Positions 1-16,389 of a stretch of 32,000 bases of DNA are shown one piece after another (the first letter of the stretch is position 1; each line of letters opens with the position of its first letter). Under the pieces are notes generated by a model. That model did no database searches. It was not told where the DNA came from and saw only the letters and a list, made by a program, of their open reading frames with translations. A program made the translations under genes and the position numbers. The DNA is taken from contig NC_008312.1 in assembly GCF_000014265.1 (NCBI RefSeq), forward strand, positions 5,790,001 through 5,822,000. Direction: 5' to 3'. This DNA comes from Trichodesmium erythraeum IMS101. Lineage in GTDB: Bacteria > Cyanobacteriota > Cyanobacteriia > Cyanobacteriales > Microcoleaceae.

Positions 1-519
1 TAGAGTAGGTAAAGATCCTGTTCTTTCAAGAGCAGAAAAGCTCTCAAGAGGTATCCAGTTTCCATGAGTATCTAACCACCCCATTTTTTGTGAGTTATTA
101 ATACCTACCTGATTTTTGAATTGAGTAATTGCAACAGGACGTCTTTCTATAATCTTAATATTTAAACTTGGGGGAAATAAACGACGGCTAATTCTTGCCT
201 TAGCAATTGGACTCTGTGACTCTAAATTCTGAGCTAATATTTGTGTTTTAATTACCCAAAGAGACTGAGGATAATCTAAAGAAATTAGAGACAATATTGC
301 TCGGTCTGAAAGCAATTGATTACCTTCTACGGTTAATTGCTCTTGTTTAGTTATTAGCCAAATTGGTTGAGTAATTGCCCAAAGTAAAGCTGCACCTAAA
401 CCACCAACTGCTAGTACTTGCCATACTATAACTAATAACTTTAAACGTCGTTGAAGCCGTAATTTTTGTCTACGACTTACTAAATCTGATTCAGAAACTG
501 ATCCAATATTATTAGCCAT
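1..519 (-). CDS. ftsQ: Cell-division protein FtsQ/DivIB, N-terminal 173 codons (3' end lies beyond the window start)
   Basis: Absent from the ORF track because it runs off the edge. The reverse complement from ATG (519-517) reads MANNIGSVSESDLVSRRQKLRLQRRLKLLVIVWQVLAVGGLGAALLWAI, a basic stretch plus one TM helix. It continues ...LTVEGNQLLSDRAILSLISLDYPQSLWVIKTQILAQNLESQSPIAKARISRRLFPPSLNIKIIERRPVAI, a POTRA-type FtsQ pattern. The frame is open through all 173 codons to position 1. Confidence 0.7.
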   Translation of the reverse strand, partial: MANNIGSVSESDLVSRRQKLRLQRRLKLLVIVWQVLAVGGLGAALLWAITQPIWLITKQEQLTVEGNQLLSDRAILSLISLDYPQSLWVIKTQILAQNLESQSPIAKARISRRLFPPSLNIKIIERRPVAITQFKNQVGINNSQKMGWLDTHGNWIPLESFSALERTGSLPTL

Positions 520-1030: not shown

Positions 1031-1959
1031 TAGTCTATTTAACTTAAGAATGAAACAAAAAGAGTGTAAGATTGAACAGAGAAGATATGGGAGTATAAAT
1101 CATAGCTTATAGTTTAGATTTAAGACAAAAAGTAATAGTAATAATAGAACATAGCGGTAGAGTCACCAAAGCGACGTAAGTGTTTGGAATAGGAATAGCG
1201 TCAATGTACAGATGGCTTGAGAGAAAGGAGCTGTCAGCAACAAAGGTAAAATATATCTAGCATTCGCTAGATATAAGAGAATTGTCAATAAATTGACAAG
1301 AAAATCCAGAAACTAGATTAAAACAGAAAGCTGAAAAATACTGCAATTTTTAAGGCTATCAAAAAAATGAAAATAGCCAGAAAAAAAAGAAGTACGTTAT
1401 TGCACAAAGTAGTAGATAATAATGGATAAAATATTATGATGATTTACCGAAATTAATCAAAATATATGGGGTTACAAGTTTAGTATTGGTTTTGGAGTTA
1501 GGACTTGAATAATTTCTAAATTGTATTTATGTGTGGTAAAAAAGGGGGAAAAATTTATGGAGATAGGCAAGGAAAGAGGAGAAAAAGAGAAAACTTAGTC
1601 CCTGGTAGAAGAAAAGGAAAAAAAGATTTAATTCCACCAATGATATTCACAGAAAGTTTGAATACAGAAGATTTTGAAGGCTGGTTATCAATATATTTAT
1701 TACCATCATTAACCATCACATCAGTTTTGATTATGGATAATGCACCAATTCATCGAAAAACAGTGATTAAACAAATAGTTGAAGATGGAGGTTATCAGGT
1801 CATATTCCTCCCTAAGTATTCTCCTGATTTGAATAATATTGAACATAATTTTAGTGCCTTAAAGAGAGCCAGAATTTATGCTCATTCAAATACACCCTTA
1901 GATGAAATCATCCGTGATTATTGTGTAGTTTAATGTCTCATTCTTAAGTTAAATAACTA
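1031..1959 (+). mobile_element. Decayed ISY100/IS630-family insertion sequence (~930 bp) with terminal inverted repeats and TA flanks
   Basis: The left end 1031-1057 (tagtctatttaacttaagaatgaaaca) pairs with the right end 1934-1959 (tgtctcattcttaagttaaataacta) as inverted repeats, with one mismatch and one 1-nt indel. TA lies immediately outside both ends (1029-1030 and 1960-1961), as expected for an IS630/Tc1 target duplication. The size matches the short ISY100-type IS630 members. Confidence 0.8.
1087..1933 (+). pseudogene. IS630-family DDE transposase, inactivated by stops and frameshifts
   Basis: ATG at 1087 is followed by a stop at codon 4 (MGV*). The frame continues IIAYSLDLRQKVIVIIEHSGRVTKAT* .. 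SMYRWLERKEL (HTH region), then shows many stops and frame changes across 1180-1528. Only the last 134 codons remain open (track ORF 1529..1933). They carry the DDE_3-type signature LIMDNAPIHRK ... FLPKYSPDLNNIEHNFSALK. Confidence 0.8.
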
Positions 1960-2468: not shown

Positions 2469-3836
2469 ATGGAGGTAAAAAAACTCTTGAGTAAATTAGA
2501 CTTAATTAGATTTTATAAAGCTTGTAATCCAAGCAAGACCTTGATAGTAGGAAATGCAGAAGATCAGCAATATTATATAGATTTTGCCAGTGTTAGAGGT
2601 AGCGATATAATTAAAGAATTAGAAAGAACTATAATACTATTATCAGGAAATCAGCCGACTTGTCAACTATTTACAGGCCACATAGGTTGTGGTAAGTCTA
2701 CCGAATTATTTCGACTTAAAGATAAATTAGAAAAACAAGGATATCATGTTGTTTACTTTGAGTCTTCAGAAGACTTAGATATGGGAGACGTAGATATTAG
2801 CGATATTTTGCTAGCGATTGCTCGTCAAGTCAGTGAAAGCATGGAACAAGCTAAAATTCAAATCAAACCAAGTTACTTCCAAAAGTTATTTGGTGAAATA
2901 TCAGAACTGTTACAAACTCCCATAGAACTTTCCGCAGAAGCAGAGCTATCTGTTGGTATTGCTAAAATTACTGCTAAAACCAAAGATTCCCCTAAACTAC
3001 GTTCTCAGTTAAGACAATACCTCGAACCCCGAACTAGCACTATTCTAGAATCAATCAATCAAGAATTATTAGAACGTACCAATATAGAGCTCAAGAGACG
3101 AGATAAAAAAGGACTTGTTGTGATTGTTGATAATCTAGACCGTGTAGATAACTCACCCAAATCTTGGGGACGTACTCAACCAGAATATTTATTTGTAGAC
3201 CGAGGCGAGCAACTCAAAAAACTCAACTGTCATGTCGTCTACACAATTCCTCTTACATTAATGTTCTCTAATGATTATGGCAGATTATCTAGTCGATTTG
3301 GAGTGAAACCAAAAATATTACCAATGGTGCCTGTACAGATTAGGTCTAAAAAACCGACAATAGCCCCAAATGACTATGAGACAGGAATAAAATTATTACG
3401 AGAAATGGTATTAGCTAGAGCTTTTCCAGAAATACCATCCCAAAAACGTCTAGAATTTATTCCCGCTCTATTTGAAACTTCAGAAACCCTTGATAGACTT
3501 TGTCGAGTTAGTGGGGGTCACATGCGAAAACTGTTAATGTTGCTCTATAGTTGTCTGCAACAAGAAGATCCTCCTTTTTCTAGTGAATGTTTAGAAAATG
3601 TGATTCAGGAATATCGAGATGATCTAACTAGAGCTATTACTGTTGACGAATGGGAGTTGCTATTTAAAGTAGTACAAAATCAAAGAGTAACAGGAGAAGA
3701 AGAATGCCAAGCTTTACTCAGAAGTATGTTTGTTTTTGAATATCGAGATCGGGATGGTCATTGGTTTGGAATTAATCCATTGTTGGCAGAAACTAAAAAA
3801 TATGCTAGTTGGGTTAATAGTAATTATCAGGAGTGA
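2469..3836 (+). CDS. Stand-alone P-loop NTPase (KAP-like Walker B, AAA+/Orc-Cdc6-like lid, winged-helix-like tail); no sensor or effector domain
   Basis: 455-codon ORF with an ATG start. Walker A is GHIGCGKST (aa 70-78, nt 2676-2702). Walker B is GLVVIVDNLDR (Asp at nt 3129-3131). There is a sensor-2-like VSGGHMRKLLMLL and a C-terminal WELLFKVV...FVFEYRDRDGHWFGINPLL segment. It is co-oriented with the giant STAND gene and lies 108 nt upstream of it. Confidence 0.75.
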   Translation: MEVKKLLSKLDLIRFYKACNPSKTLIVGNAEDQQYYIDFASVRGSDIIKELERTIILLSGNQPTCQLFTGHIGCGKSTELFRLKDKLEKQGYHVVYFESSEDLDMGDVDISDILLAIARQVSESMEQAKIQIKPSYFQKLFGEISELLQTPIELSAEAELSVGIAKITAKTKDSPKLRSQLRQYLEPRTSTILESINQELLERTNIELKRRDKKGLVVIVDNLDRVDNSPKSWGRTQPEYLFVDRGEQLKKLNCHVVYTIPLTLMFSNDYGRLSSRFGVKPKILPMVPVQIRSKKPTIAPNDYETGIKLLREMVLARAFPEIPSQKRLEFIPALFETSETLDRLCRVSGGHMRKLLMLLYSCLQQEDPPFSSECLENVIQEYRDDLTRAITVDEWELLFKVVQNQRVTGEEECQALLRSMFVFEYRDRDGHWFGINPLLAETKKYASWVNSNYQE

Positions 3837-3944
3837 GGGAATAGGGAATAGAGTTTTAAACTATATATGTATATATGTGAAATAATTTCCCGACATGACT
3901 GAGGGGGTCAAAGCTTTGCTCCAATAAAATCTTAATCTTAACTT

Positions 3945-6900
3945 TTGACTTTTAAATTTCCTATGGAACCTTTAAAATATCCGGAAGAAAGTATTATTTA
4001 TAATAAGCGATCGCTCACAAGATTGATGAGATCTGTCACCATTTCTCAGGGACAGTTTTCGTTGATTTTAGCCTGCTGTAACTACCAACACTTCCAGCAA
4101 AGAATGATGATGGAAGTGAAAAAAATGTTATCAGTAGAACTGCAAGAAATAGTATTATCAAAAACTGTCACTACTCTTTATACAACTATCGATCAACAAT
4201 TAGAAAAGTTCCCCGAAGCTCCTGCAGTAATGATCTTAAACTTAGATAAAGTAGAAGCAATAGATGAACTACTAATATCGACTAATCAGGTAAGAGACGA
4301 ATTTAGGAAAAAATTTAGCTTTCCTCTAATTTTGTGGATTACAGATAAATTATTGGCTAAACTAATTAGATTAGCACCTGATTTTAAAAGTTGGGCAGCA
4401 GCTACAATTAAATTTGAGTTTGCGACTTCCGATTTAATACATTTACTAAAAATGGCAATAGATAGTTATTGGATAAATGAATCGGCAAATGAACAACAAC
4501 AATTAATAAAATCATCATCAAATTCTACAAAATATAATTTTTTAGTCCCTAGTTTTCTCGATCAATCTAATTGTTATTATGGTAAGAAGTTATCTCAAAA
4601 TAAACATCAAGAAATTCAATTAGCTTTCAAAGATTTAAAAGAACGTGAACAGCATTTAGAAACAACTCTTAAAGCAAAGATAGAATTTATTATTGGTCGA
4701 GATTACTTCTATAACAACAATATAGATTCTGCTCTCGAACATTATCAAGAAAGTCTAAATTTATGGGAGTATAAAATTGGGTCATTAGAGTATCCTAAAT
4801 CATCAATAATTAGCGAGAGGTTTATCCTAGAACAAAAAGGAATAGTTTTATATAATATTGCCTTGTGTTATTATCTGCAATCTACCCAAAACCCCTTAGA
4901 TAATTATCAAGAATTAGAAAAGGCAAAACTGAAGCTTGAAGAATCAAAACAACTTTTTGAAGAAGTGAATAATTTTGTCTTGGTAGCTGAGGTAATTACA
5001 ACATTAGGACAAGCTATAAAGCAGATGAAAGCTTGGGGAGAATTAGAAGCTATTGCCTTAGAAGGACTACAATTACATCACAAATATGGAAATGATTTAC
5101 AAATAGCACAAGATTATGGTTTTTTGGCAGAAGTTGCCCTACAAAAATCCAATTGGGTTGAGGCTCAGAAGCTATCTGAAAGAGCCCTTAATATTTTGTT
5201 TTATGCTAAAGATATAACATTACCAACGGAAAAAAATAAATACCTGTTATTATTAGCAAAAAGTCTCAAAAATTTATATCGTCAAGCAGAAGCTATTGAG
5301 TATTTAGAAATTGCCGAGTTAACAGAGCAAGAGGCAATTAAAAATAGTTTGAAAACTCAGGAAAATAGAGACCCAAAACTTTACATTGAGCTGTTAACGG
5401 AGTTGGGATCACTTTATTATAATCAAGGAAAATATTTACAAGCATTTCGCTTAAAAAAAGCTCAAAGAAAAATTGCGCATCAGTACGGACTTTTAGCTTT
5501 TATTGGCGCATCTCAGTTACAACCACAAAAACAAAGTTATATCAAAGAATCATTAGATTACCAAAATACTTTACCCTCAGAAATAACTGCTTCTGGTCGT
5601 CAAAAAGATATTAATAATCTCCTGGAAAGAATAAGTCGAAATGACTGTAAATTAACAATTATTCATGGTCGTTCTGGTGTAGGAAAAAGTTCTTTAGTTA
5701 ATGCTGGATTAATACCAGCTTTAAAAAATATTAGTATTTCAGCACGAGATACAGTACTAGTAGCAGTACAAAGATATAATGATTGGCTAGAAGTATTAGC
5801 ATATTCTCTCAATAAATCATTACAAAAAAAATGTAAGTTGCGAAATAATAATAATCTCTTCAAACTCAAAAAAGATTATATAAAAAATCAAGAATCAATT
5901 TTTTCTATAAGAGGAAAAAATTTGAATTCAGAAGTAGAAAAAACTTATGATTCTGAACTTAAAGATGAATTTCAGTGTATAGAATCATGTGTTATAGCTC
6001 AATTAAAAAACAATTCAGAGAATAATTTATTAACAGTAATAGTATTTGATCAATTTGAAGAATTTTTCTTTTTTAACAATAGTAGTGAAGATAGAGAAGT
6101 TTTCTACAGATTTATATGTAATTGTCTAAACCTACCCTTTGTGAAAGTAATCTTATCTATGAGAGAAGATTATTTACATTATTTATTAGAATGGGACTTT
6201 ATCAGCGATCTAGATGTTATTAATAATAATATCTTAGATAAAGATATCCGTTACCATTTAAGAGATTTTTCTAGAGAAGATGCTTATACTGTTATAGAAT
6301 GTTTAACAAAGAGAGCTAAATTTAATTTAGAACCTCAATTGATTGATGTAATTGTTGATGGTTTAGCAGATGAAAAACAGCAAATTCGCCCAATAGAATT
6401 ACAAGTAGTAGGAAGTCAACTGCAAGAAGAAAAACCTCAGATTCAAACTTTAGATCAATTTCAAAAAAAGTTTGACATTAATCCAAAAAAAGCGAAAGCA
6501 AAACTAATAAAAAATTTTTTAGAGCAAGTAATTATAGATTGTGGTCAGGAAAATGAAGAAGCTACTATGCAAGTTTTATTTGCACTAACTAATGATAATT
6601 TAACTAGAGCTACTCGTACAAAAAAAGAGTTATTAGAAATAGTAAAAACATGTATAGAAACAAGTTTTTTAGTAAATGTTGATTCTAGTAAATTTGTCGA
6701 AAATCAAATTAATTATAATGAAAAGATAGAAGGATTGCTAAATTTAATTTTAGAAATATTAGTAGATTCAGGATTATTATTTATTCGGCAAGAATGCAAT
6801 GAAAAAAACTACCAGCTAGTTCACGATTATCTAGTAAAACCAATCCGTAAAAGGTTTGACTTAGAAAATAGATTACAGCAGGCTGAGGTAGAGATAAAAA

Positions 6901-9539
6901 ATGCTGAAATTGCTAAAAACAAGGCAGAAACAGATAAAATAACTAGCCAAGCAAAACTAAATATACTTTTAAAACGACAACTAGCAGTAGCAATCCTGGG
7001 AATTATATTAATGTCAATGTCAACTATTGCTACACTGGGTTTTTGGCAGAAAACAAGATTTCAAAAACAAGTAGCAACTGCTCAAAAAGAGCGTGCAGAT
7101 ATTAATAGCATGACTGCTTTTTCAGAAGCATTATTTTTTTCAGGTTATAAATTTGATGCTTTGATAGAAAGTATTAAAGCAGGTAAAAAATGGCAAAAGA
7201 TAAAACAATTATTAGGAGAACAAAATCTCTCAAATGATACAGAATATCGAATTGCAGCTTCTCTTCAGCAAGCAGTTTATGGAGTGAACAAATATAACCA
7301 TTTGGAAGGACATAATAATATAGTTTGGAGTGTCATCTTTCATCCTGAAGGAAACTTAATTGCTTCTGCTAGTGCAGATAAAACTATTAAATTATGGAGT
7401 CGAGATGGCAAATTACAAAAAACTCTAACAAATCATAAAAATAGGGTGAGCAAAATTAGCTTTAGTTCGGATGGGAAATACTTGGCTTCAGCTTCCCATG
7501 ATTCCACAGTTAAAATTTGGGATCTTCAGCAACTAGAAATGAAACCTCTATCTCTCAAGAGTCATAGTGATTCGGTGGTAACAATCAACTTTAGTCCGAA
7601 TAATAAAATGTTAGCATCAGGTTCACTTGACAAAACTATCAAAATTTGGAACTATACGGGCGTATTACTTAGAACAATTAGGACTAAATCAGTAGTTAAA
7701 TGGGTTAGCTTTAGTCCAAATGGAAAAATGATTGCTGCTGCTAATGCAAATGGAACTGTACAGCTGTGGAATCTTAATGGGAAGCTTTTGAAAACCTTAA
7801 AACATGGAGCTGGAAATCATAATTACCCAGTTTACAGTGCCAATTTTTCTCCTGACGGTAAGAGAATGGTGACAGCAAGCGGAGATCAAACAGTCAAAAT
7901 TTGGCGTTTTTTCAGAAATATACCGATTTTAGAAAAAACAATAACAGGACACAAAAAACAAGTTATCAATGCCAGTTTTTCTCCTGATGGAAAAATAATA
8001 GCTTCCTCTAGTACAGACAAAACTATCAAAGTTTGGCAGCTAGACGGAACCCTCTTGAAAACTTTTTCGGGTCATGGAGACACAGTTACTCAGGTTACTT
8101 TCAGTCCTGATGGCGAAACTCTGGCTTCAGCTAGCTATGATAAAACTATTAAGTTCTGGAGTCTCAAAAACGATTCTCTAAATGTTCTACAAGGTCATAA
8201 ACATAGAGTTCTTGGTGTGAGTTTCAGTCCAGATGGTCAAATCTTGGCTTCTGCATCTCAAGACAATACTATTAAATTGTGGAGTCCCACAGGTAAGTTA
8301 TTAAATAATCTTGAGGGGCATACTGATAGAGTAGCAAGTGTTAGTTTTAGCTCAGATGCTCAGATTCTTGCTTCTGGTAGTTATGATAATACAGTAAAGT
8401 TATGGTACCTCAATTCTCCAAATCAAATCTGGAACTGGAAATTCCTTGAAGATCCTAAAAGTTGGCAATTGTTAGGCAAAAATCATCAGCTTTTTACTCT
8501 CAAGAATGAAAAAAACAAGTTATATTTAGTAGAACAGGTAAAGTTTTTAGAGAATTTTTTGTCAACTAATTTAAATTGTTTTCTAAATGCGAGGAGTTTT
8601 TGTCTTGTTCCCTGGGGAAAAATTACTTCCTTCTTTCCTAGAAATTTTTCTTTACTGCCACGTCAGTTTCTTGAAGAACTAAAATACCAAAGTTGGTTTG
8701 AGATCGCTGCCGATAATCAAGTAAAAGTTCAATGTAGACTTCTACAGTGCTTGCAAAATGAGATCATAACTGTTGGTGTTGATTGGAATTGGAACACAGA
8801 TGATTACTTGATTGATTTTACCTCTAAAAGTATTAATCTTATAGGACATACTGATAGTTTGCTGAGTGTTAGCTTTAGTCCAAATAATCAAGTTATTGCT
8901 TCTAGTGGCAAAGACAAAACGATAAGGTTGTGGAACCGGGAAGGTAAGCTGCTGAAAACTTTAGTTGGACATAATGAATGGGTTAGTAGTGTCAGTTTTA
9001 GTCCTGATGGCAAAATACTCGCTTCTGCTAGCGATGATGGCACCGTCAAACTATGGACTCAAAAAGGTGTGCTTTTAAAAACTATTAATGCTCATAGTGG
9101 TTGGGTTTTGGGGGTAAGTTTTAGTCCAAATGGTCAGGCGATCGCTACAGCAAGTTATGATAATACGGTTAAGCTTTGGAGTCTTGACGGTGAGTTGCTC
9201 AGAACTTTTTTGAAGGGTGCTAGCGATAGTGTTACCAGTGTGAGTTTTAGTCCGGATGGTCAGGCCATTGCTTCATCTAGTTATGATGGTAAGGTTAAGC
9301 TCTGGAGTCTTTATGATGGTAGTTTATTAAAAACTTTGAACGGTCATCAGGATAGTGTGATGAGTGTAAGTTTTAGTCCTGATGGTAAGTTGTTAGCTTC
9401 TGGTAGTAGAGATAAAACTGTAATTTTGTGGGATTTGGCTTTGGATAGTTTGTTAGATCAAGGTTGTAGTTGGGTTCGTGATTATTTACGGACTAACCCT
9501 CATGTTTCTCAGAGTGATCGGCAACTTTGTGAAAAATAA
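3945..9539 (+). CDS. Giant multidomain STAND NTPase: degenerate P-loop-like N-domain, TPR-like repeats, nSTAND1-type NTPase, coiled coil, one TM helix, 14 WD40 repeats
   Basis: 1864-codon ORF. Walker A is IIHGRSGVGKSSLVNAGLIPAL (GRSGVGKS = nt 5667-5690) and Walker B is LLTVIVFDQFEEFF (Asp at 6048-6050). TPR-like helices span about aa 230-520 (for example DSALEHYQESLNLWE and LGSLYYNQGKYLQAFRL). The hydrophobic helix is LAVAILGIILMSMSTIATLGFW. There are 14 units of the form GH..V.SVSFSPDG..LASAS.D.T[IV]KLW, and a C-terminal tail LALDSLLDQGCSWVRDYL. The track start at 3945 is TTG; the first in-frame ATG is 3963 (MEPLKY...), so the true start is uncertain by 6 codons. Confidence 0.9.
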   Translation: MTFKFPMEPLKYPEESIIYNKRSLTRLMRSVTISQGQFSLILACCNYQHFQQRMMMEVKKMLSVELQEIVLSKTVTTLYTTIDQQLEKFPEAPAVMILNLDKVEAIDELLISTNQVRDEFRKKFSFPLILWITDKLLAKLIRLAPDFKSWAAATIKFEFATSDLIHLLKMAIDSYWINESANEQQQLIKSSSNSTKYNFLVPSFLDQSNCYYGKKLSQNKHQEIQLAFKDLKEREQHLETTLKAKIEFIIGRDYFYNNNIDSALEHYQESLNLWEYKIGSLEYPKSSIISERFILEQKGIVLYNIALCYYLQSTQNPLDNYQELEKAKLKLEESKQLFEEVNNFVLVAEVITTLGQAIKQMKAWGELEAIALEGLQLHHKYGNDLQIAQDYGFLAEVALQKSNWVEAQKLSERALNILFYAKDITLPTEKNKYLLLLAKSLKNLYRQAEAIEYLEIAELTEQEAIKNSLKTQENRDPKLYIELLTELGSLYYNQGKYLQAFRLKKAQRKIAHQYGLLAFIGASQLQPQKQSYIKESLDYQNTLPSEITASGRQKDINNLLERISRNDCKLTIIHGRSGVGKSSLVNAGLIPALKNISISARDTVLVAVQRYNDWLEVLAYSLNKSLQKKCKLRNNNNLFKLKKDYIKNQESIFSIRGKNLNSEVEKTYDSELKDEFQCIESCVIAQLKNNSENNLLTVIVFDQFEEFFFFNNSSEDREVFYRFICNCLNLPFVKVILSMREDYLHYLLEWDFISDLDVINNNILDKDIRYHLRDFSREDAYTVIECLTKRAKFNLEPQLIDVIVDGLADEKQQIRPIELQVVGSQLQEEKPQIQTLDQFQKKFDINPKKAKAKLIKNFLEQVIIDCGQENEEATMQVLFALTNDNLTRATRTKKELLEIVKTCIETSFLVNVDSSKFVENQINYNEKIEGLLNLILEILVDSGLLFIRQECNEKNYQLVHDYLVKPIRKRFDLENRLQQAEVEIKNAEIAKNKAETDKITSQAKLNILLKRQLAVAILGIILMSMSTIATLGFWQKTRFQKQVATAQKERADINSMTAFSEALFFSGYKFDALIESIKAGKKWQKIKQLLGEQNLSNDTEYRIAASLQQAVYGVNKYNHLEGHNNIVWSVIFHPEGNLIASASADKTIKLWSRDGKLQKTLTNHKNRVSKISFSSDGKYLASASHDSTVKIWDLQQLEMKPLSLKSHSDSVVTINFSPNNKMLASGSLDKTIKIWNYTGVLLRTIRTKSVVKWVSFSPNGKMIAAANANGTVQLWNLNGKLLKTLKHGAGNHNYPVYSANFSPDGKRMVTASGDQTVKIWRFFRNIPILEKTITGHKKQVINASFSPDGKIIASSSTDKTIKVWQLDGTLLKTFSGHGDTVTQVTFSPDGETLASASYDKTIKFWSLKNDSLNVLQGHKHRVLGVSFSPDGQILASASQDNTIKLWSPTGKLLNNLEGHTDRVASVSFSSDAQILASGSYDNTVKLWYLNSPNQIWNWKFLEDPKSWQLLGKNHQLFTLKNEKNKLYLVEQVKFLENFLSTNLNCFLNARSFCLVPWGKITSFFPRNFSLLPRQFLEELKYQSWFEIAADNQVKVQCRLLQCLQNEIITVGVDWNWNTDDYLIDFTSKSINLIGHTDSLLSVSFSPNNQVIASSGKDKTIRLWNREGKLLKTLVGHNEWVSSVSFSPDGKILASASDDGTVKLWTQKGVLLKTINAHSGWVLGVSFSPNGQAIATASYDNTVKLWSLDGELLRTFLKGASDSVTSVSFSPDGQAIASSSYDGKVKLWSLYDGSLLKTLNGHQDSVMSVSFSPDGKLLASGSRDKTVILWDLALDSLLDQGCSWVRDYLRTNPHVSQSDRQLCEK
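6981..7046 (+). other. Predicted single transmembrane helix inside the STAND protein (aa 1013-1034)
   Basis: A 22-residue uncharged hydrophobic stretch, LAVAILGIILMSMSTIATLGFW. It is preceded by a K/E-rich coiled-coil-like segment (AEVEIKNAEIAKNKAETDK...LLKRQ) and followed by QKTRFQKQ. Confidence 0.6.
7302..8408 (+). repeat. WD40 block 1: nine tandem WD40 units
   Basis: Nine consecutive units are readable in the translation, running from LEGHNNIVWSVIFHPEGNLIASASADKTIKLWS to GHTDRVASVSFSSDAQILASGSYDNTVKLWY. Confidence 0.9.
8409..8837 (+). other. In-frame 143-codon non-WD40 insert between WD40 units 9 and 10
   Basis: The translation LNSPNQIWNWKFLEDPKSWQ...CRLLQCLQNEIITVGVDWNWNTDDYLIDFTSKSIN has no GH/WD periodicity. 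It contains no stop in 143 codons despite AT-rich DNA. It is bounded by tggaactggaa (8430-8440, WNW) and tggaattggaa (8784-8794, WNW). Confidence 0.7.
8838..9434 (+). repeat. WD40 block 2: five tandem WD40 units
   Basis: The units run from LIGHTDSLLSVSFSPNNQVIASSGKDKTIRLWN to GHQDSVMSVSFSPDGKLLASGSRDKTVILWD. Nine plus five gives 14 units, enough for two 7-bladed propellers. Confidence 0.9.
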
Positions 9540-9586
9540 AATTATGGGGAATAGAGAATGAAAATTAGTATTTAACTGTCAGGTGT

Positions 9587-10135
9587 TTATAACTTATAGC
9601 TCAAAGTGCACTCTAGAAAAGGGGTTAAAAAATAATGTTTAATATGGCATCATTTGTGTATAGAATTAATTCACAATGAAAACTACTGCTCCTGACCATA
9701 ATTCTGGTAGCAAAAAATGTTCAATAAATAGAATGAAGTTCTTTATTATCTATTGAATTATTTATTGTCATTAGTGCTACTGCTTATTTCATATTTGTTA
9801 CAGCAATTACTTTAACTTTTTGACCTTGATAAAATACCTTATTTTCATATATCCTAGTTTTCTTAGCATGAGCATGCATCAGTTCTTGTTAAACCAGAAT
9901 TATACGAGTTTCATCTATAAATACTAAATTTTCTGTACTAAATTTTATGGGTCTATATATTTTACCAATTTTTTCTTCTTCTTCTCTCAATTTTTTTACT
10001 TTTTCTCTCCTAGCTTGGCTAATAAAGTAATAGTCGTTGTTATCTATTGATAAATGAAACCTCTTTACAATTTCTCAAGTACTTGCTGTTAGTATCTTTA
10101 TTGGAGCGATCGCCAGCTCTTCCAAATAGTAATTC
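9587..10135 (-). pseudogene. IS630-family transposase relic (heavily decayed and deleted)
   Basis: Minus-strand translation gives ..LAIAPIKILTAS*EIVKRFHLSIDNNDYYFISQARREKVKKLREEEEKIGKIY..STENLVFIDETR (VFIDETR = nt 9904-9924, the first DDE Asp region). It continues ..HAHAKKTRIYENKVFYQGQKVKVIAVTN.. and ends LTPFLECTLSYKL* (9587-9628), which corresponds to LNPIE..W..LK. Several stops and frameshifts are present. Confidence 0.55.
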
Positions 10136-10165
10136 TAGATAGTGATTTTTTATGTGATGAATAAG

Positions 10166-10328
10166 TATAATACTATTTCTCAAAAAATTTTGCTATAGTC
10201 AAATTTTCTATTTCTAAATACTATTTATTGATGCAGTTTTTCTTTGGTAAAAACCTCTGTTATTTTTCTAGTTATTTTTACTACCTTCCAAAAATAGAAT
10301 AGCATTACTTTTGAGAAACAGTATTATA
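10166..10328. mobile_element. MITE-like element (~163 bp) with 20-nt terminal inverted repeats
   Basis: The segment 10166-10185 (tataatactatttctcaaaa) matches the reverse complement of 10309-10328 (ttttgagaaacagtattata) at 19 of 20 positions. It lies directly beside the 5' end of the IS630 relic at 9587-10135. The interior has no ORF. Confidence 0.45.
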
Positions 10329-10917
10329 ACAATTTTAGAAGTGGCTGCTGTAGAAAAAATAATATCAGGCAATGGTTTTTAGATGCTCATTTGTAATATT
10401 TTTTTTCAAAATAGTATTAGACCTCTCCAAAAATGCCAATTTTAGAACGGTGGGGCAAGGGTTTGAGAACCCTTTCTGGAGATGTCTATTACAGACAGTT
10501 GCTATTCACTTTTACTACTTTTACAATTTTTTTTATGATTTTATTTTCCTGTATAAAGTATAATATTTAACAATATAAATACTCTGATTTTTAATCAAAA
10601 CAAAGCACCTTTTTTTTGAATAACTTTTTCATAATATGAATTTTTATCATGATACTCCAAATATTTTTATTATCCTGATTAAATATAATACAAATATTCT
10701 TTTTGAGATATTTTTCAATTCTCTTTCTTGACTAAATCAAACACTATATGGATTATTTTTTTGTGTTAAGTATTTCCCCACCTTAATATCCTTTACCCCC
10801 TTAATTTTTTTTATTTTGCCAACTTTTTTTGTTATTTTTTTGAATAAAATGTGATTATATAACTGCATTTTTTTCTTTATTCTTCCTTCTACCTTCAAAT
10901 AATAGTTAACAAGTGAA

Positions 10918-11685
10918 ATGAACGATAATAATATACAAGTTTTACCAGAAATGAGTTCGGTTTGGCAGGAAACATTAAATTGGCAGCCAACAGTAGAGCA
11001 AAAACAACAATTTCAGAAACTTTATGAGTTAATTATTCTAGGAAATAAAAAGTTAAATTTAACTAGAATTACTAAACCCGAAGAGTTTTGGGAAAAACAT
11101 CTTTGGGATTCCCTGAGAGGAATTAAATTTATCTTAGAAAATAAAATACATTGGTCAGAAGAAAAAAAGGTTATTGATATTGGAACAGGTGCTGGTTTTC
11201 CAGGATTACTAGTTGCAATTATCCTACCTCAATATGCTGTTACTTTACTAGATTCAACCCGCAAAAAAATTAGTTTTATTGAAAATATTTTAACAGATTT
11301 AAACATCAAAAATGCTTTAACTATAACTAATAGAGTTGAACAAATTGGTCGTCTCTTTAAATATAGAGAAACTTATGATATTGGTCTTTTGAGGGCTGTT
11401 GCATCTACAGTAGTATGTGCTGAATATGCTTTGCCATTACTAAAAATAGGTGGAATTGCAATTTTGTATCGAGGAAATATAACAACTGATGAACAGGCTA
11501 ATTTACCAGAAGTTGTCAAACTTTTGGGAGGCAAAATAGAAAGGATTGAGGAATTTAAAACTCCCTTAAGTAATAGTATTCGTAATTGTATATATTTACG
11601 GAAAGTAGGTAAAACTCCAATAAATTATCCGCGTTCAGTTGGTGTGCCTAATCAAAAACCTTTACTTAGTTTAAAAAAAATCTAA
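10918..11685 (+). CDS. rsmG: 16S rRNA (guanine527-N7)-methyltransferase RsmG (GidB)
   Basis: 255-aa ORF with LNLTRITKPEEFWEKHLWDSL, the SAM-binding motif VIDIGTGAGFPGLLVAI, and LLDSTRKKISFIE. Order and spacing are typical of GidB/RsmG. Confidence 0.9.
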   Translation: MNDNNIQVLPEMSSVWQETLNWQPTVEQKQQFQKLYELIILGNKKLNLTRITKPEEFWEKHLWDSLRGIKFILENKIHWSEEKKVIDIGTGAGFPGLLVAIILPQYAVTLLDSTRKKISFIENILTDLNIKNALTITNRVEQIGRLFKYRETYDIGLLRAVASTVVCAEYALPLLKIGGIAILYRGNITTDEQANLPEVVKLLGGKIERIEEFKTPLSNSIRNCIYLRKVGKTPINYPRSVGVPNQKPLLSLKKI

Positions 11686-11765
11686 AAATTTGCTAATATT
11701 ATGTCTGCTTAAATATTCATCATATTTGTGAATATAAGTAATACCAATTTGAAAAAAATTTCTAC

Positions 11766-11971
11766 ATATTATTGCTTGGGTAGGTTGGGGATTAGAGTAA
11801 AATTAAGAATAATATATAATTAGTAATTATGCTAAATTCAGTGCACGAATGGAGGCTTATTGCTTACTAAATATTATTGGTTGGGTAGGTTGGGAATTAG
11901 AGTAAAATTAAGAATAATATATAATTAGTAATTATGCTAAATTCAGTGAACGAAGGGAGACTTATTGCTTA
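11766..11971 (+). repeat. Two tandem copies of a ~101-nt unit (period 105 nt) in the rsmG downstream spacer
   Basis: Copy 1 (11766-11866) and copy 2 (11871-11971) differ at 5 positions. The shared core is ttgggtaggttggg.attagagtaaaattaagaataatatataattagtaattatgctaaattcagtg. There is no ORF on either strand. Confidence 0.85.
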
Positions 11972-12382
11972 GGTAAGGAAGAATAGTGAAAAAGATTTAG
12001 AAAAACCAGCTTTTTATAACCTAATTTAGTATTATTTATTAGCAGCATTATACTATATAGGCTTTAAATATAAACCATATTTAATCATAACATTGGTGTT
12101 AAAAAAAATGTATTCAACAGATAAAATAATTATCTAAAATTATCATTTACTATAAGTAGGTAGGCATCAAAAAAACTTAGCTATATTAATATTTATACAC
12201 TAACGATAAACTACTCCACACAGGTAACTTGAGGTAAATTTACATCTTCTTAAATAGGGATAAATTTAAGACCAATTACTTAGTATTTCTGTAATCTATA
12301 AGGTATAGAAATATCTCCCGTCAGAAAATTATCTAACGAGAGATTAGTTAAATTTAAATATAAAAATAGGTTTTTTTAGACT

Positions 12383-12817
12383 CTAATGATGATGATTATT
12401 CGGACAAGCTTGCAAGTCTTGACTCATCAACTCCTCACTTTTTACCTTTTGGGTTTCATCTACAGCTTCTAAACCAACCCAATTATTAACAATTTCAATA
12501 TCAAATCCCACTTCTCTACGCTCGCCTACTTGTATTAGAGGACGACGGATTAATAATGGGTCGTTGAGCATCATTGTTAGAGCAGTTTCTCCATCAATTT
12601 TTTCAGGAACTACTTCTCCAGATTTAACTTTTGGAGCAGCTTTATTAAACCACTCTGCTACTGGGCGATCGCCAAAAAATAAACGTAAATTATCTTTTGT
12701 CCAAGGTTCAGTCAACAAATTATGAGCTTCTAATTGATGACCTGCTGCTTTTAACAAAGTCTTTTGCTTTGTATTGTTTTTGCAACCTGGTTTTTCATAA
12801 AAAATTACCTTTGCCAT
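12383..12817 (-). CDS. ArsC/Spx-family thioredoxin-fold protein (resembles the nitrogenase-associated ArsC-like subgroup)
   Basis: 144-aa ORF starting MAKVIFYEKPGCKNNTKQKTLLKAAGHQL, a beta-alpha start with a single Cys as in ArsC/Spx. It also contains ..PVAEWFNKAAPKVKSGEV.. and PLLIRRPL. The C-terminus is a CPNNHHH tail. Confidence 0.75.
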   Translation of the reverse strand: MAKVIFYEKPGCKNNTKQKTLLKAAGHQLEAHNLLTEPWTKDNLRLFFGDRPVAEWFNKAAPKVKSGEVVPEKIDGETALTMMLNDPLLIRRPLIQVGERREVGFDIEIVNNWVGLEAVDETQKVKSEELMSQDLQACPNNHHH

Positions 12818-13088
12818 TGTCTTATATCCTCAGCAGTTTTTTTGGTAATTTTTTAATCTTAATACCTGATTAAATAGCAAATTGTAAGCAATTATCAAAA
12901 AAAATTATTCTTATGTATGATATAATTATATATTACAACTTTAAACAAAAGTAAATATTTATCAAAAAGAAAATTTATATAGTTATACCAGTTTGATAAA
13001 TGTTTCCTAACAATTGTAGAGTATCTTGAGTGGGCATCAAATTATTCATATTATTGAGGGATAATATATGCCATCTTCCTGTGTTTTT

Positions 13089-13685
13089 ATTGCTTATTCT
13101 TTTGATGAAGTTTTCCCTATTTATCCAAATCAAAATTGGAAATAATTTTCTAATATAACGGAAATAATTAATCAATTATATGATAGCAAAATAAGTCCTA
13201 TTGCTAGCCACAGTATTTTTTTATTAGGAACAGTTTGCCAACAAAATAAAAACTTGAGTAAGTTTGCTTGAATTCCCAAAAATTATTTAAATTTTGAAAA
13301 TTATGATTGTATTTTGTAATTAGAAAATCTTCACTGATATCAATCTGTTGACATTACTATTGCTAGTGACAAAAATACACAACTTTTACATCATTTTTTT
13401 GAACTAAAAAAAAGTAAATTTCCTGAGCAAAGCTTTAGATAATCTCTGAAAATATAGCAACTTTCACCCATAAATGAGGTACTATATCTAATGATTCAGC
13501 TATCAGCTTCTGATATCAAGCATGAAAAAACAATATTATGCAATGCTTTACCCAAGTGAAGCTTCAATTCTTAAGTGATTAACACGTTCCCAATAGCTTT
13601 TTGATAACTAGTACCTCAAAATTGTGTTAATTTTAGATTTTGTTTGAGGAGCGTTGTCTGCCATTTCTCTACTTACTTCCCCTGC
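13089..13685 (+). pseudogene. Probable IS630-family relic (very decayed)
   Basis: IAYSFD (13089-13106) resembles the IAYSLD N-terminus of the element at 1031-1959. SASDIKHEK..CNALPK (from about 13506) resembles YSPDLNNIEH..SALKR. The 3' part (13542-13685) is homologous to the 3' part of the better-supported relic at 14865-15368. Confidence 0.3.
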
Positions 13686-14179
13686 TGGTAGTATTTATAG
13701 GTAGGTCTCCTAATTAAGAAAGTGTAATAATTAGTATGAGATATCTCTAAATTTCCCACCACAAAACTTTATTGTTTAACAATTCAAACTAGTGGTTCTT
13801 GTGCTTTAATTTCAGGGTTATTTTATTCTTGAGGTTAAATGAAGCTTTGAGTAATTGGAAGACAAGGGCGATCAATATTATTTGTTTATATTTAATCATT
13901 TGTGAAGAATAAAGTGGTAAAACTATCTCTAAATCTTGGGTTTGTCTGTTCCAAAAATTAGAATGAAACAGCCGTTTCAATATCAATTCTATGGTTAAAA
14001 ATCTAATGGTTGCTTTATTCACTAAAAAGCTGATATCTGAATGCTTACAGTATAATTTTCTGAATTAATCTTGAAATACCCATATCAAAATAATGAGGCA
14101 GGATAAATTTGAGTTAAAAAATTAACAAAATAAAATCCTGTTTATCAATTCTGCTGGGAGTATATTTCAAATAAAATTT

Positions 14180-14863
14180 ATGATTAACCAAATTATGAAA
14201 ATAGAAGAATTATTAAGGCAATATGCAATAGGAGAAAAAAATTTTAGTGGCCTATACTTACAGGAAGCACATTTACTAAAAGCTAATTTAGAAGGTGCTA
14301 ATTTTTTTGAAGCTAACTTAACAGGTGCTAACCTCAGTCAGGCCAATCTCAGTCGAGTAAATCTGGCCAAAGCGAATCTGACTGGAGCAAATCTAATTGG
14401 AACTGATTTAAGCGAAGCAAACTTGTCGGACACTCTTCTAGTAGGAGCTAAATTTAACAAAGCCGATCTAACAAGGGCAAAACTTATCAGAGCAGACCTA
14501 AGTTGTGCTGACTTTAGCCAAGTTAATATGGTAGATGCTGACCTCTCAAGAGCTATTTTGTATGAAATAGATTTACATGGAGCTAACCTATATGGGGTCA
14601 ATTTCCGACGAGCTATTCTTAACAAAGCTGACTTAATTGGCGCTAATCTTATTAGAGCTAATATGACTGGAGTAGACTTAATTGAAGCAAATCTAACAAG
14701 AGCAAACTTAACAGAGGCTATTTTAAGCGGTGCTGATTTAAATGGGGCAAGTCTTTTGGGTGCTAATATTTCTGATGTTAATTTAGTTGGAGCAGCTCTT
14801 CAAGCAGTAATTATGCCCGATGGTACAGGTTATGAAGAAATTAGCACATCTATTCAAAATTAA
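14180..14863 (+). CDS. Pentapeptide-repeat protein (cytoplasmic type, no signal peptide)
   Basis: 227-aa ORF. From about aa 25 to 205 it is continuous A(D/N)LxG-type pentapeptides (ANLEGANFFEANLTGANLSQANLSRVNLAKANLTGANLIG...). Confidence 0.9.
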   Translation: MINQIMKIEELLRQYAIGEKNFSGLYLQEAHLLKANLEGANFFEANLTGANLSQANLSRVNLAKANLTGANLIGTDLSEANLSDTLLVGAKFNKADLTRAKLIRADLSCADFSQVNMVDADLSRAILYEIDLHGANLYGVNFRRAILNKADLIGANLIRANMTGVDLIEANLTRANLTEAILSGADLNGASLLGANISDVNLVGAALQAVIMPDGTGYEEISTSIQN

Positions 14864-14864
14864 T

Positions 14865-15368
14865 AGATTATCAAGTTATTTTAATATTGAGTTCGATGGA
14901 CTAAACAAAGCAAAAAAAAAGGGGGCTCGAATTAGTTTAAAGAAATATTTACTCAGCCTACTAATGATGACTGATATTGTATAATTTTTAGACATTACCT
15001 AAATTTTTGGTGACATTGATGAGTTTTGCAAATTATTTCAACACTATTGGCAACAATAGTTGCAACTCTCCTCCTTACCTGGAGAATGTCACTGTCATCT
15101 TAAGTCTCATTAATTAGCCATAATAAAAATGCTTTTCTCATATTAATTTCTCCCAATTCTCAATTCCCTAAAATATTTCCACAGTGGGTATTTACATAGA
15201 CCAGAAAAATTTTTATTCCTTAATAATATTAAGTATGAGAAAAGAATGCTTTTTGGACTGAAACTTTAATTATTAAGTAACTAACACGTTCCTAATAGCT
15301 TTTTTTGATAATAAAAAGCCAAAAGCGTATTAATTTTATAAGTTTTTACTTACTTCACCTACTCCCCT
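14865..15368 (+). pseudogene. 3' half of an ISY100/IS630-type element (relic)
   Basis: Colinear with IS copy 1031-1959 from its aaaaaaggggg tract (14917-14930 versus 1546-1558). The pieces are IIFRHYLN (matching MIFTESLN), DEFCKLF..LQLSSLPGE (matching the F..WL..LLPSL region), VTVILSLIN*P at 15088-15120 (matching TSVLIMDNAP) and FLFLNNIKY at 15219-15236 (matching LNNIEH). An IR-like sequence ttaattattaagtaactaac follows. Stops and frameshifts occur throughout. Confidence 0.6.
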
Positions 15369-15540
15369 ACTCCCCTGTTCAATAAACTATAATAAACATT
15401 TATTCAATTGGTGTAATTACTAGATTTGGTGATTAATATGGTATAGTTAATGAGGCAATTTTTTTTTTGCTTGTTCTCTATGCTTTGACTTGCCTTTACT
15501 ATTCTCTACTGCCTAATATCCTATTTTTAAATATTTAAAA

Positions 15541-16308
15541 ATGAGAGTTAAAATTTTTTCCGCTGTTTTAGTTTTTACTACAGTTTTTCCTAATCTTACA
15601 GCCATTGGTGAAAATATCCAACATACACAAAGATTATTATCTAGTAAACAATGTCCTAATTGCGAACTAATAGGTGTTGGTTTGGTATTGGCAAATCTTC
15701 AAGGTGCTAATCTAGAGGGAGCTAATTTAAGTGGAGCTAATCTCAGTCGTGCAAATTTAACAGGTGCTAATTTATCTGGTGCTAATTTGGCTGGTACAAG
15801 TTTATTTGGTGCAAATTTAACAGGGGCAAATTTATCTGGTGCTAATTTAGCTGGTACAGATTTAAGAAGTGCTTATTTAACAGGTGCTAATTTAACAGAT
15901 GTTGACCTAAAAAATGCTTTTTTGTTAGGTGTTGTAGGAATGCCATCTAATATAGGTGAAGCTGAAGATTTTTATCGGTTAGGAATTGCAGAAGCAAAGG
16001 CAGGAAATTATAAAGATGCTGTTAGATATTACAACCAAGCTATTAGTATGAAATCAGATTTAGCAGCTGCTTATTTTGCTAGAAGTATGTCTCTTGCTGA
16101 CCTGGGAAATCTTAATGCAGCTATTGCAGATGCTCAAAAGTCTCGGGATATTTTTGTTTCTAAAGGTAGTAAAGAAGGTGAAGAATTATCACAATATTTG
16201 GTTGAAATTATTGACCTACGTTTGAATCCTCCAAAACCAGAAAAACCTAATCAATTTGTACACGCTATTGGTTCTTTACTTCCTGCTTTATTAAGGTTGG
16301 CGTTTTAG
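15541..16308 (+). CDS. Secreted pentapeptide-repeat protein with a C-terminal TPR-like module
   Basis: 255-aa ORF. The N-terminal signal-like segment is MRVKIFSAVLVFTTVFPNLTAIG. Pentapeptides follow (ANLQGANLEGANLSGANLSRANLTGANLSGANLAG...). The protein ends with TPR-like helices (YRLGIAEAKAGNYKDAVRYYNQAISMKSDLAAAYFARSMSLADLGNLNAAIADAQKS). Confidence 0.85.
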   Translation: MRVKIFSAVLVFTTVFPNLTAIGENIQHTQRLLSSKQCPNCELIGVGLVLANLQGANLEGANLSGANLSRANLTGANLSGANLAGTSLFGANLTGANLSGANLAGTDLRSAYLTGANLTDVDLKNAFLLGVVGMPSNIGEAEDFYRLGIAEAKAGNYKDAVRYYNQAISMKSDLAAAYFARSMSLADLGNLNAAIADAQKSRDIFVSKGSKEGEELSQYLVEIIDLRLNPPKPEKPNQFVHAIGSLLPALLRLAF

Positions 16309-16360
16309 TATGGTTTTTTGAAACTCAATTTTTTTTGTTTGGCTTTGGTGAATGGTGAAT

Positions 16361-16389
16361 GCTAATTATTAGGAATTAGCACAGTTTTT
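16361..16389 (+). terminator. Possible intrinsic terminator after the pentapeptide/TPR gene
   Basis: A perfect 7-bp hairpin, gctaatt-attagg-aattagc (16361-16380), is followed by acagtttttg. It lies about 50 nt after the stop at 16308. The stem is AT-rich, so it is weak. Confidence 0.3.

Follow-up and report, generated by a model that had tools for sequence, protein, structure and literature searches.

The question raised by the locus described here is whether a pair of genes built from the parts of bacterial immune receptors must also serve as one. The pair lies in a window of 32,000 nucleotides (nt; the window being the whole stretch of DNA that was analysed) from the cyanobacterium Trichodesmium erythraeum IMS101 (contig NC_008312.1, positions 5,790,001 to 5,822,000). 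Gene 1 encodes a soluble, bare STAND/ORC-like ATPase and gene 2 a much larger STAND NTPase with a predicted membrane anchor and C-terminal WD40 repeats. Bacterial STAND/NLR-like NTPases are now read almost entirely as fast-turnover antiphage or suicide devices; the pair here is kept beside the division genes ftsQ and ftsZ from Trichodesmium to Nostoc. On the reading preferred in what follows, for which we judge the chances to be about even, a conflict-type STAND pair would have been turned into a core cellular switch, i.e. a two-NTPase membrane switch sensing a conserved cue, and would not be an accessory antiphage island. The pair is probably an ancient two-gene module of filamentous cyanobacteria, of which this copy would have been exapted, and the cue that it senses is probably conserved and self-derived.

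The two genes are the only long open reading frames (ORFs) between positions 2469 and 9539. A preliminary description of this DNA, made from the letters alone, had them co-oriented and 108 nt apart, and both their limits and the NTPase motifs quoted for the two proteins are indeed found at the positions given there (Table 1). In a genome scan, which took one genome per species, at least 593 loci with relatives of gene 1 were found, and the counts of synteny given here refer to the best 80 of these. An ortholog of gene 2 lies immediately downstream of gene 1, on the same strand, in 72 of the 80, such that the arrangement of gene 1 homologs next to nSTAND1-WD40 genes is kept rather than lost in other genomes. 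Moreover, the orthologs at these 72 loci match gene 2 in every segment, that is, in the N-domain, the TPR region, the nSTAND1 module, the linker with its hydrophobic helix and the WD40 repeats. Among the remaining eight loci, two have too little flanking sequence and six have other genes after gene 1.

When the flanking ORFs were clustered, only two further families were found to be common to several orders, both of them upstream and divergent: a protein with an FtsQ-type POTRA domain (POTRA_1), upstream of gene 1 in 59 of the 80 loci, and FtsZ (57 of the 80). The resulting block, in which ftsZ and ftsQ point one way and gene 1 and gene 2 the other (ftsZ<-ftsQ, gene1->gene2), is present in Trichodesmium, Okeania, Lyngbya, Limnoraphis, Microcoleus, Tychonema, Laspinema and Kastovskya, and also in Nostoc, Fischerella and Iningainema, the neighbours other than ftsQ and ftsZ differing between orders. 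Judged from this gene order, the copy beside ftsQ-ftsZ, called type I here, is a vertically inherited block common to Oscillatoriales and Nostocales.

In complete genomes of Trichormus (Anabaena) variabilis the order is hflX-grx-gshB-ftsZ-ftsQ, then gene 1-gene 2 and, further on, psbO, the orthologs being ABA21462.1 (gene 1) and its neighbour of 1661 amino acids (aa; gene 2). From this gene order and the locus tags of psbO, ftsQ and ftsZ in Anabaena PCC 7120, which we take to be all3854, alr3857 and alr3858, respectively, the orthologs in the latter strain should be all3856 and all3855. No mention of all3856 or all3855 was found in the literature searched, nor any account of the pair in the literature on ftsQ, ftsZ, WD40 or STAND proteins in filamentous cyanobacteria, on nSTAND1 or on the protein families of multicellular cyanobacteria. 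SepT/All2460 with its P-loop neighbours lies at another locus. Separately, a gene of the DndE family (DNA phosphorothioation) lies just past ftsZ/thiD (2406-2807 of locus L001), in the same position in about 25 Oscillatoriales loci, and is adjoined in about 15 loci by an ORF of roughly 680 aa (2-2035 of locus L006), which by eye only resembles an SMC/DndD-type ATPase; with these two, the division genes may have a DNA-modification or defence cluster on their other side.

That the two genes form one unit is seen best where they have been copied. Type II pairs, which lie away from ftsQ-ftsZ amid unrelated housekeeping genes, occur at 12 loci; no third conserved component or effector was found among their neighbours, which include glycolate oxidase subunits, acetyl-CoA synthetase, rpoC2 and a kinase. 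They fall into a clade of their own for gene 2 and into groups of their own for gene 1. A pair of each type is present in one Nostoc genome, with identities between the two of 62% (gene 1) and 55% (gene 2); between Nostoc species, type I orthologs are 97% (gene 1) and 92% (gene 2) identical. A Coleofasciculaceae contig (L032, positions 9023-17254) carries two gene 1/gene 2 pairs in tandem, the second gene 2 being cut by the contig end. The distance matrices of the two genes are correlated (Pearson r=0.94, rank correlation 0.46), in part as an effect of the species tree. What these comparisons show, at the level of trees and identities, is that the pair has been inherited and duplicated as a unit.

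The pairing extends beyond the chromosomal copies. In plasmid paralogs of Acaryochloris, Nostoc and Calothrix, the identity of gene 1 is 51-63% and a large partner again follows it; on pREB2 of Acaryochloris marina the two genes overlap by 4 nt, and the partner has an architecture identical to that of gene 2 (N-domain/TPR/nSTAND1/TM, i.e. transmembrane helix/WD40). Two proteins, P0307 and P0316, are independent fusions of a gene-1-like module to nSTAND1/TPR, in opposite orders. This retention of the pairing at family level, in plasmid copies and in fusions, strongly suggests that the two proteins act together. Indeed, the notion of mere neighbours with independent functions, coincidentally associated with ftsQ-ftsZ, is largely refuted by the synteny and is very improbable: the six loci with gene 1 and no adjacent gene 2 would agree with it, as would a gene 1-gene 2 spacer of variable length (long by ORF coordinates in Microcoleus), whereas all three lineages (type I, type II and plasmid) keep the pairing down to ~51% identity, the pair is duplicated as a unit, fusion proteins join both module types and the genes overlap in Acaryochloris.

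The nature of gene 1 is not evident from sequence profiles. Its protein, which is identical to a Logan-derived protein whose 90% cluster includes T. erythraeum IMS101 ABG52818.1, has Pfam matches to generic P-loop families only (AAA_22, ATPase_2, NPHP3_N and KAP_NTPase, E about 1e-5 to 1e-7). Homologs are often named KAP NTPases in databases; the match to KAP_NTPase (PF07693) scores 22.7 bits at a cut-off of 20 and covers positions 21-165 of 293 of the profile only, those to AAA_22, ATPase_2 and NPHP3_N being similar. A search of the sequences of solved structures with the gene 1 profile gave nothing below E=0.2. The AlphaFold2 model (predicted local distance difference test, pLDDT, 88) has a nucleotide-binding domain (NBD) followed by helical and winged-helix domains, and its best structural matches in Foldseek are Apaf-1, CED-4, ORC/Cdc6, TnsC and the archaeal ATPase PAB2304; the sensor-2-like motif SGGHMRKLL lies within helices 338-365 of the model. 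The insert at aa 100-215 has no transmembrane helices, being soluble and helical in the model and polar or charged by inspection. The STAND class, as reportedly set out by Leipe, Koonin and Aravind in 2004, is made up of a P-loop NBD, helical and winged-helix domains and a C-terminal repeat sensor. In the model of gene 1, the first three are found, and C-terminal sensor repeats are lacking. In other words, gene 1 is, on this model, a truncated, sensor-less STAND member, much as the preliminary description had proposed in calling it a bare NTPase with a lid and a winged-helix tail.

Gene 2 had been described as a stack of a degenerate N-domain, TPR-like repeats, an nSTAND1 NTPase, one transmembrane helix and 14 WD40 repeats, and this anatomy is recovered by Pfam, AlphaFold2 and hydropathy, the TPR matches being weak but consistent with it. 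Its true start is probably the ATG at 3963 and not the TTG at 3945, because Met7 aligns with a nearly invariant M of the homologs; in the 108-nt spacer before it, no terminator-like site was found on the + strand, which is a weak negative result. A model of aa 1-240 (pLDDT 84, and >90 over aa 20-160) has a five-stranded AAA+-like fold with no Walker A motif, nearest in Foldseek (E about 1e-4) to the inactive AAA+ domain of Sir3, to ORC and to clamp-loader subunits. A decayed copy of gene 1 was also considered for this domain, from the likeness of LNLDK to DNLDR, and was rejected when hhalign of the family profiles gave a probability of 1%. Both PF13424 (TPR) and PF20703 (nSTAND1) are among the precomputed matches of gene 2 homologs, and a search of the sequences of solved structures with the nSTAND1 region gave nothing below E=0.2. 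A homolog search with the N-terminal half of gene 2 (word prefilter) found 45 proteins, all of <=929 aa, and the full-length orthologs were taken from the genomic loci.

The hydrophobic helix of gene 2 is preceded by a charged helical stretch and sits between the NTPase and the WD40 repeats. Nearly all full-length orthologs have a hydrophobic segment of ~20 residues at the equivalent position, with Kyte-Doolittle values of 2.0-2.4 in Oscillatoriales and about 1.5-1.8 in Nostocales. The 14 WD40 repeats counted by Pfam and the TPR region supply the repeat sensor that is expected of a STAND protein. The WD40 repeats fall into two blocks separated by an in-frame insert, which is present in the loci of a Trichodesmium metagenome-assembled genome (MAG) and of Okeania and is unaligned in the next relative (L006), where the flanking alignments are only ~85 nt apart. 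An origin of this insert as a miniature inverted-repeat transposable element or insertion sequence (IS) was rejected: no terminal inverted repeats or target duplications were found, and its flanks show WD40 self-similarity only. As had been noted from the letters, no effector domain is recognisable in either protein with Pfam, NCBIfam or PADLOC. NCBIfam gave sub-threshold GTPase and P-loop matches only, and PADLOC gave gene 2 no defence profile match outside its WD40 repeats (HEAT-ARM_XIII there), with no Avs and no bNACHT.

Table 1. Coordinates of the gene pair, its domains and motifs, and the flanking features in the window.
Feature	Coordinates	Strand	Remarks
ftsQ, 5' part (first 173 codons; gene continues past left window edge)	1..519	-	translation matches FtsQ of Trichodesmium MAG
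DDE_3 transposase fragment, 134 aa, truncated	1529..1933	+	Pfam PF13358, E=7e-23
Gene 1, 455-aa soluble STAND/ORC-like ATPase (NBD, helical lid, winged helix)	2469..3836	+	ATG start; without repeats or effector
Gene 1 Walker A GHIGCGKST, aa 70-78	2676..2702	+	invariant in 58 aligned homologs
Gene 1 Walker B VVIVDNLDR, aa 217-225, KAP-like	3117..3143	+	D221, N222, L223, D224, R225 invariant
Gene 1 SGGHMRKLL, aa 348-356, sensor-2-like, helical lid	3510..3536	+	S348, G349, G350, H351, R353 invariant
Spacer between gene 1 and gene 2, 108 nt	3837..3944	+	between ORF ends
Gene 2, 1864-aa membrane-anchored STAND NTPase (anchor predicted)	3945..9539	+	TTG start as listed
Gene 2 N-domain, aa 1-195, AAA+-like alpha/beta fold without Walker A (pseudo-ATPase)	3945..4529	+	AlphaFold2 model
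Gene 2 TPR-like helical repeats, aa about 240-530	4662..5534	+	TPR_12 E=5e-6, TPR_1 E=2e-4, both under Pfam cut-offs
Gene 2 nSTAND1 NTPase module, aa 551-896	5595..6632	+	PF20703, 101.7 bits vs cut-off 27.1, E=9e-29
Gene 2 Walker A GRSGVGKSS, aa 575-583	5667-5693	+	SGVGKS invariant in 64 pairs
Gene 2 Walker B VIVFDQFEEF, aa 698-707	6036-6065	+	FDQFEEF invariant in 64 pairs
Gene 2 predicted single transmembrane helix LAVAILGIILMSMSTIATLGFW, aa 1013-1034	6981..7046	+	Kyte-Doolittle 2.27 over 19 aa
Gene 2 WD40 block A, aa 1121-1490, some nine repeats to judge from its length	7305..8414	+	Pfam WD40 and beta-propeller models
Gene 2 lineage-specific in-frame insert, aa 1491-1630, ~140 aa	8415..8834	+	no Pfam match
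Gene 2 WD40 block B, aa 1631-1835, some five repeats to judge from its length	8835..9449	+	best-conserved part of gene 2, with 62-66% identity in Nostocales and Microcoleus orthologs
rsmG (GidB methyltransferase), downstream neighbour	10918..11685	+	PF02527, E=4e-47; collinear with Okeania L003

Whether such a pair turns over as an immune receptor would can be judged from the constraint upon it. Median identities to the Trichodesmium proteins, given for Nostocales and Microcoleus-type orthologs in that order, are 65% and 73% for gene 1 and 69% and 73% for FtsZ; in other words, gene 1 is conserved to the same degree as FtsZ. The values for FtsQ are 46% and 54%. Within gene 2, they are 40% and 51% for the N-domain, 37% and 41% for the TPR region, 41% and 53% for nSTAND1, 46% and 49% for WD40 block A and 63% and 66% for WD40 block B. 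The ratio of non-synonymous to synonymous substitution rates (dN/dS), taken against the Trichodesmium MAG and Okeania, respectively, is 0.15 and 0.10 for gene 1, 0.13 and 0.12 for WD40 block B, 0.31 and 0.18 for block A and 0.46 and 0.33 for nSTAND1, the insert of gene 2 being nearly neutral (0.81 and 0.59). Both NTPases have intact Walker A and Walker B motifs, which are invariant. In receptors engaged in an arms race, the sensor repeats are expected to be the most variable part, and known immune sensors are variable and patchy in their distribution. As far as sequence can tell, the constraint on WD40 block B together with the invariant Walker motifs is the opposite of this pattern. The constraint on gene 1, the purifying selection on the WD40 repeats and the stable locus all argue against a fast-evolving antiphage module in the case of this copy.

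The wider family is another matter. An exhaustive profile search with the gene 1 family returned 381 representative clusters at E<=1e-30. Among gene-1-like proteins 40-55% identical to gene 1, P0337 (Nostoc) and P0347 (on a Calothrix plasmid) have a TIR domain at the C-terminus, P0364 has an N-terminal CHAT and TRADD-N fused to the gene-1-like module, and further ones have a second STAND NTPase. The Acaryochloris pREB2 pair is set amid HicAB and RelE toxin-antitoxin genes, integrases and a NACHT gene. On plasmid4 of Calothrix NIES-4101 the order is gene-1-like, gene-1-like-TIR and a 1300-aa partner, the last consisting of an N-terminal extension, N-domain, TPR, nSTAND1 and a transmembrane helix, with no WD40 repeats. 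By virtue of the TIR and CHAT/TRADD-N fusions, and of plasmid-borne pairs amid toxin-antitoxin and integrase genes, the wider family is, on this comparative evidence, one of the conflict-type NTPase systems that have been described in multicellular bacteria (PMC7159879, PMC8195603). Within it, to judge from domain architecture, effectors ride on the gene-1-type module.

Two further observations concern the plasmids. The Calothrix plasmid4 region (L085, 1-16502) is rich in conflict genes and holds two stand-alone TIR proteins, a GUN4-domain protein and a WD-repeat protein besides the three-gene variant of the cassette. On the Nostoc plasmids (L086 and L087), the 1844-aa partners are labelled 'ribosome assembly protein 4', which looks like a misannotation caused by the WD40 repeats.

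It is at this point that an immune function has to be weighed. The pair could be an old and fixed copy of a genuine innate-immunity or abortive-infection STAND system (Avs-like), in which gene 2 would sense a conserved invader- or damage-associated signal and growth arrest or death would be executed either by gene 1 or by a protein encoded elsewhere, for instance a metacaspase or a TIR protein; we hold this to be doubtful, if a serious contender. It draws on the definition of nSTAND1 within the counter-invader systems of multicellular bacteria (PMC8195603), the fusion of gene-1-like modules to TIR and CHAT/TRADD-N, the presence of paralogous pairs on plasmids that are conjugative or mobilisable, next to toxin-antitoxin, integrase, NACHT and TIR genes, and weak, partial PADLOC matches of gene 1 to PDC-S20 (3e-7) and mad8 (3e-5). 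Against this, the place of the pair on the chromosome is the same from order to order, neither the pair nor the conserved neighbours of type I and type II loci include an effector, no Avs, bNACHT or other defence hidden Markov model matches gene 2 beyond its WD40 repeats, and no homolog was found in phage genomes. Moreover, gene 1 is as conserved as FtsZ and the dN/dS of the distal WD40 repeats is about 0.12, unlike the variability of known immune sensors. Of the accessory immunity or cell-death module first suggested for this DNA, what stands is the conflict-type character of the wider family; the accessory part does not fit a copy that is fixed, with a gene 1 conserved like FtsZ and WD40 repeats under purifying selection.

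The preferred reading of a core membrane switch can be put as a mechanism. Gene 2 would be a bitopic membrane STAND protein with its pseudo-AAA+/TPR/nSTAND1 part in the cytoplasm and its two WD40 propellers facing the periplasm (or the thylakoid lumen), since a single transmembrane helix, if it spans the membrane once, would place the WD40 repeats opposite the ATP-dependent domains. Binding of a conserved, probably self-derived ligand would release autoinhibition and so permit nucleotide exchange and oligomerisation of nSTAND1, by analogy with Apaf-1 or Avs, and the N-terminal platform of the gene 2 oligomer would then recruit the gene 1 ATPase and template its assembly. In the plasmid paralogs, a fused TIR or caspase-like effector would be activated through the proximity that such an assembly creates. 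In the effector-less chromosomal copy, the gene 1 oligomer would itself be the output, most likely acting on an endogenous process, which may be division, septum or cell-fate control in the filament and possibly regulated cell death. The linkage to ftsQ-ftsZ, a matter of gene order, is the sole lead to division, septum or cell fate. In its most specific form, the reading is one of early domestication in filamentous cyanobacteria, by which an immune-receptor-type STAND pair would have become a regulator of division or cell fate that senses the periplasm, is gated by nucleotide and is locked to ftsQ-ftsZ. This form is put forward tentatively, as one possibility.

Much of the same evidence could be read without any signalling. 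The pair could be an assembly or scaffold machine, in which the two ATPases build or anchor an envelope structure of the filament (septal junctions, gliding apparatus or septal peptidoglycan) and the WD40 propellers serve as a periplasmic scaffold. The best-scoring named homologs come almost entirely from filamentous genera, gene 2 has a predicted membrane anchor and large propellers, the pair adjoins ftsQ-ftsZ and all domains are under strong purifying selection, as would suit such a machine. Its probability is nonetheless low, given that both NTPases have the switch architecture of STAND and ORC-Cdc6 proteins and not that of a processive motor or chaperone, that relatives in the family carry death or immune effectors and that no envelope structural genes are conserved nearby beyond ftsQ and ftsZ.

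Several points weigh against a core switch tied to division. At six informative loci, gene 1 has no gene 2 next to it, type II pairs exist away from ftsQ-ftsZ, and the unicellular genus Acaryochloris has a plasmid copy, which bears on the restriction to filamentous taxa. The topology of gene 2 is predicted from hydrophobicity alone, the segment being moderate in Nostocales and its flanking charges indifferent to orientation. The link to division consists of conserved gene order only, which could be a frozen accident or reflect shared regulation without shared function. Finally, the near relatives in mobile or conflict-type contexts mean that an immune or suicide function may yet apply to this copy.

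As to the surroundings of the pair, the window begins within ftsQ, which is divergent from gene 1. The part present is 84-89% identical to loci L001-L004 (blastn), and the Trichodesmium MAG FtsQ that it matches carries the FtsQ-type POTRA domain (PF08478). The spacer between ftsQ and gene 1 is ~1.95 kb here as against roughly 0.1-0.9 kb in most other genera (ORF coordinates); it has been enlarged by the DDE_3 fragment, which could disturb any shared divergent promoter in this strain. This fragment is the sole IS-related sequence found near the gene pair. On the other side, gene 2 and rsmG have no ORF of >=80 aa between them, and ftsQ, gene 1, gene 2, rsmG and an arsC-like gene are collinear with Okeania. 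Given this collinearity and a single transposase fragment, upstream only, the insert with IS elements on either side that the preliminary description had supposed does not hold for the pair, the block being common to Oscillatoriales and Nostocales. An Rfam search of the whole window matched no family, and a promoter scan did no better than on shuffled sequence.

Further downstream, the ORF-free stretch just past rsmG contains two tandem copies, 94% identical, of a 105-nt unit (11762-11971). The ORFs at 14180-14863 and 15541-16308 read as pentapeptide-repeat proteins, with ANLxG-type repeats in their translations, the latter with an apparent signal-like N-terminus and a TPR-like tail (in both cases by reading only). 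Several paralogous pairs, too, are flanked by genes of the pentapeptide-repeat kind (L076, Acaryochloris pREB2 and a Nostoc UHCC 0302 plasmid).

If the pair does control division, septum integrity or cell fate, it would be a new component of the poorly understood cell biology of the filament and a clear case of the exaptation of an immune-type switch. Should its domestication be true, it would constitute a previously unrecognised 'multicellularity' module, and a bacterial parallel to apoptosome/NLR machinery for development rather than defence. If its function is immune instead, it would represent an innate sensor that is fixed and of unusual age, and whose WD40 receptor is predicted to be periplasmic. 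Both possibilities are open to direct test in Anabaena PCC 7120.

No named system covers the pair, PADLOC giving weak P-loop or WD40 matches only, and the pair appears uncharacterised, in keeping with what had been said of it at first. What is already known are its domains and their general class, i.e. nSTAND1, STAND-WD40 proteins and the conflict systems of multicellular bacteria. Like the nSTAND1-WD40/TPR STAND NTPases (Kaur, Iyer, Burroughs and Aravind 2021, eLife 70394; PF20703), gene 2 has an nSTAND1 module far above threshold and C-terminal WD40 repeats, the hosts are multicellular cyanobacteria, and relatives of the partner gene carry TIR, CHAT and TRADD-N. It differs from them in having a pseudo-AAA+ domain and TPR in place of an N-terminal effector or adaptor, in the predicted transmembrane helix that separates NTPase from WD40 repeats, in the obligate partnership with a second, bare STAND-like ATPase and in a type I copy that keeps its fixed place beside ftsQ-ftsZ and, far from being variable, is highly conserved. 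Effectors or adaptors (TIR, caspase, death-like or EAD) were found in neither protein nor in conserved neighbours, occurring in paralogs only. Nor is the distribution variable or patchy, as it is in those counter-invader systems, the position being stable across orders and the dN/dS of the WD40 repeats 0.12-0.31.

Avs (AVAST) proteins are STAND NTPases with C-terminal repeat sensors, which presumably oligomerise on ligand binding, and gene 2 resembles them in this layout. No Avs model in PADLOC matches the pair, however; a nuclease, protease, Sir2 or TIR domain fused as effector is lacking, the N-domain having a pseudo-AAA+ fold instead, and the sensor is of WD40 type, predicted to be extracytoplasmic and under strong purifying selection, at a locus outside any defence island. 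With regard to Apaf-1 and CED-4, these are the best structural matches of the gene 1 model (NBD and helical and winged-helix domains), and gene 2, like Apaf-1, joins a STAND NTPase to two WD40 blocks of propeller size. Here, unlike in Apaf-1 and CED-4, the NBD-helical-winged-helix module and the WD40 sensor are on two proteins, each with its own NTPase, and the pair has a predicted membrane anchor and lacks a CARD or other death-fold adaptor, sequence similarity being negligible. Paired sensor/helper NLRs, such as the sensor-helper pairs of plants and NAIP-NLRC4, offer another analogy, in that two STAND-type NTPases act together there, one with the sensor repeats and the other a module without them that could be templated into an oligomer; no homology was found beyond the STAND fold, and the helper-like gene 1 has no effector in this copy.

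Gene 1 has a DNLDR-type Walker B motif in common with the KAP NTPases (PF07693), for which its partial match scores just over the Pfam cut-off. Transmembrane helices in the P-loop domain reportedly typify KAP proteins, according to Aravind et al. in 2004; in the model of gene 1, the stretch inserted between the two Walker motifs forms a soluble bundle of helices, and the fold is nearer to STAND/ORC. The plasmid cassettes (Acaryochloris marina pREB2, Nostoc pNsp_c and Calothrix NIES-4101 plasmid4) have the same two-gene order but are on mobile replicons amid toxin-antitoxin, integrase, NACHT or TIR genes, none being linked to ftsQ-ftsZ, and the Calothrix cassette adds the gene-1-like-TIR protein and is without the WD40 part. 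A precedent for a defence-type AAA+ NTPase turned conserved division factor is PcdA of Staphylococcus aureus, an AAA+ NTPase of the McrB family, which binds FtsZ and was recruited from a restriction system to select the division plane (PMC10602043). PcdA is of a different AAA+ family, a single protein and without a membrane sensor, and its division role is demonstrated, that of the pair here being inferred from gene order. Features of which no earlier description was found are the obligate partnership of gene 2 with a bare ATPase of STAND/ORC-like type, its pseudo-AAA+ N-domain, its predicted division by the membrane and, above all, the deep conservation of the pair and its linkage to ftsQ-ftsZ.

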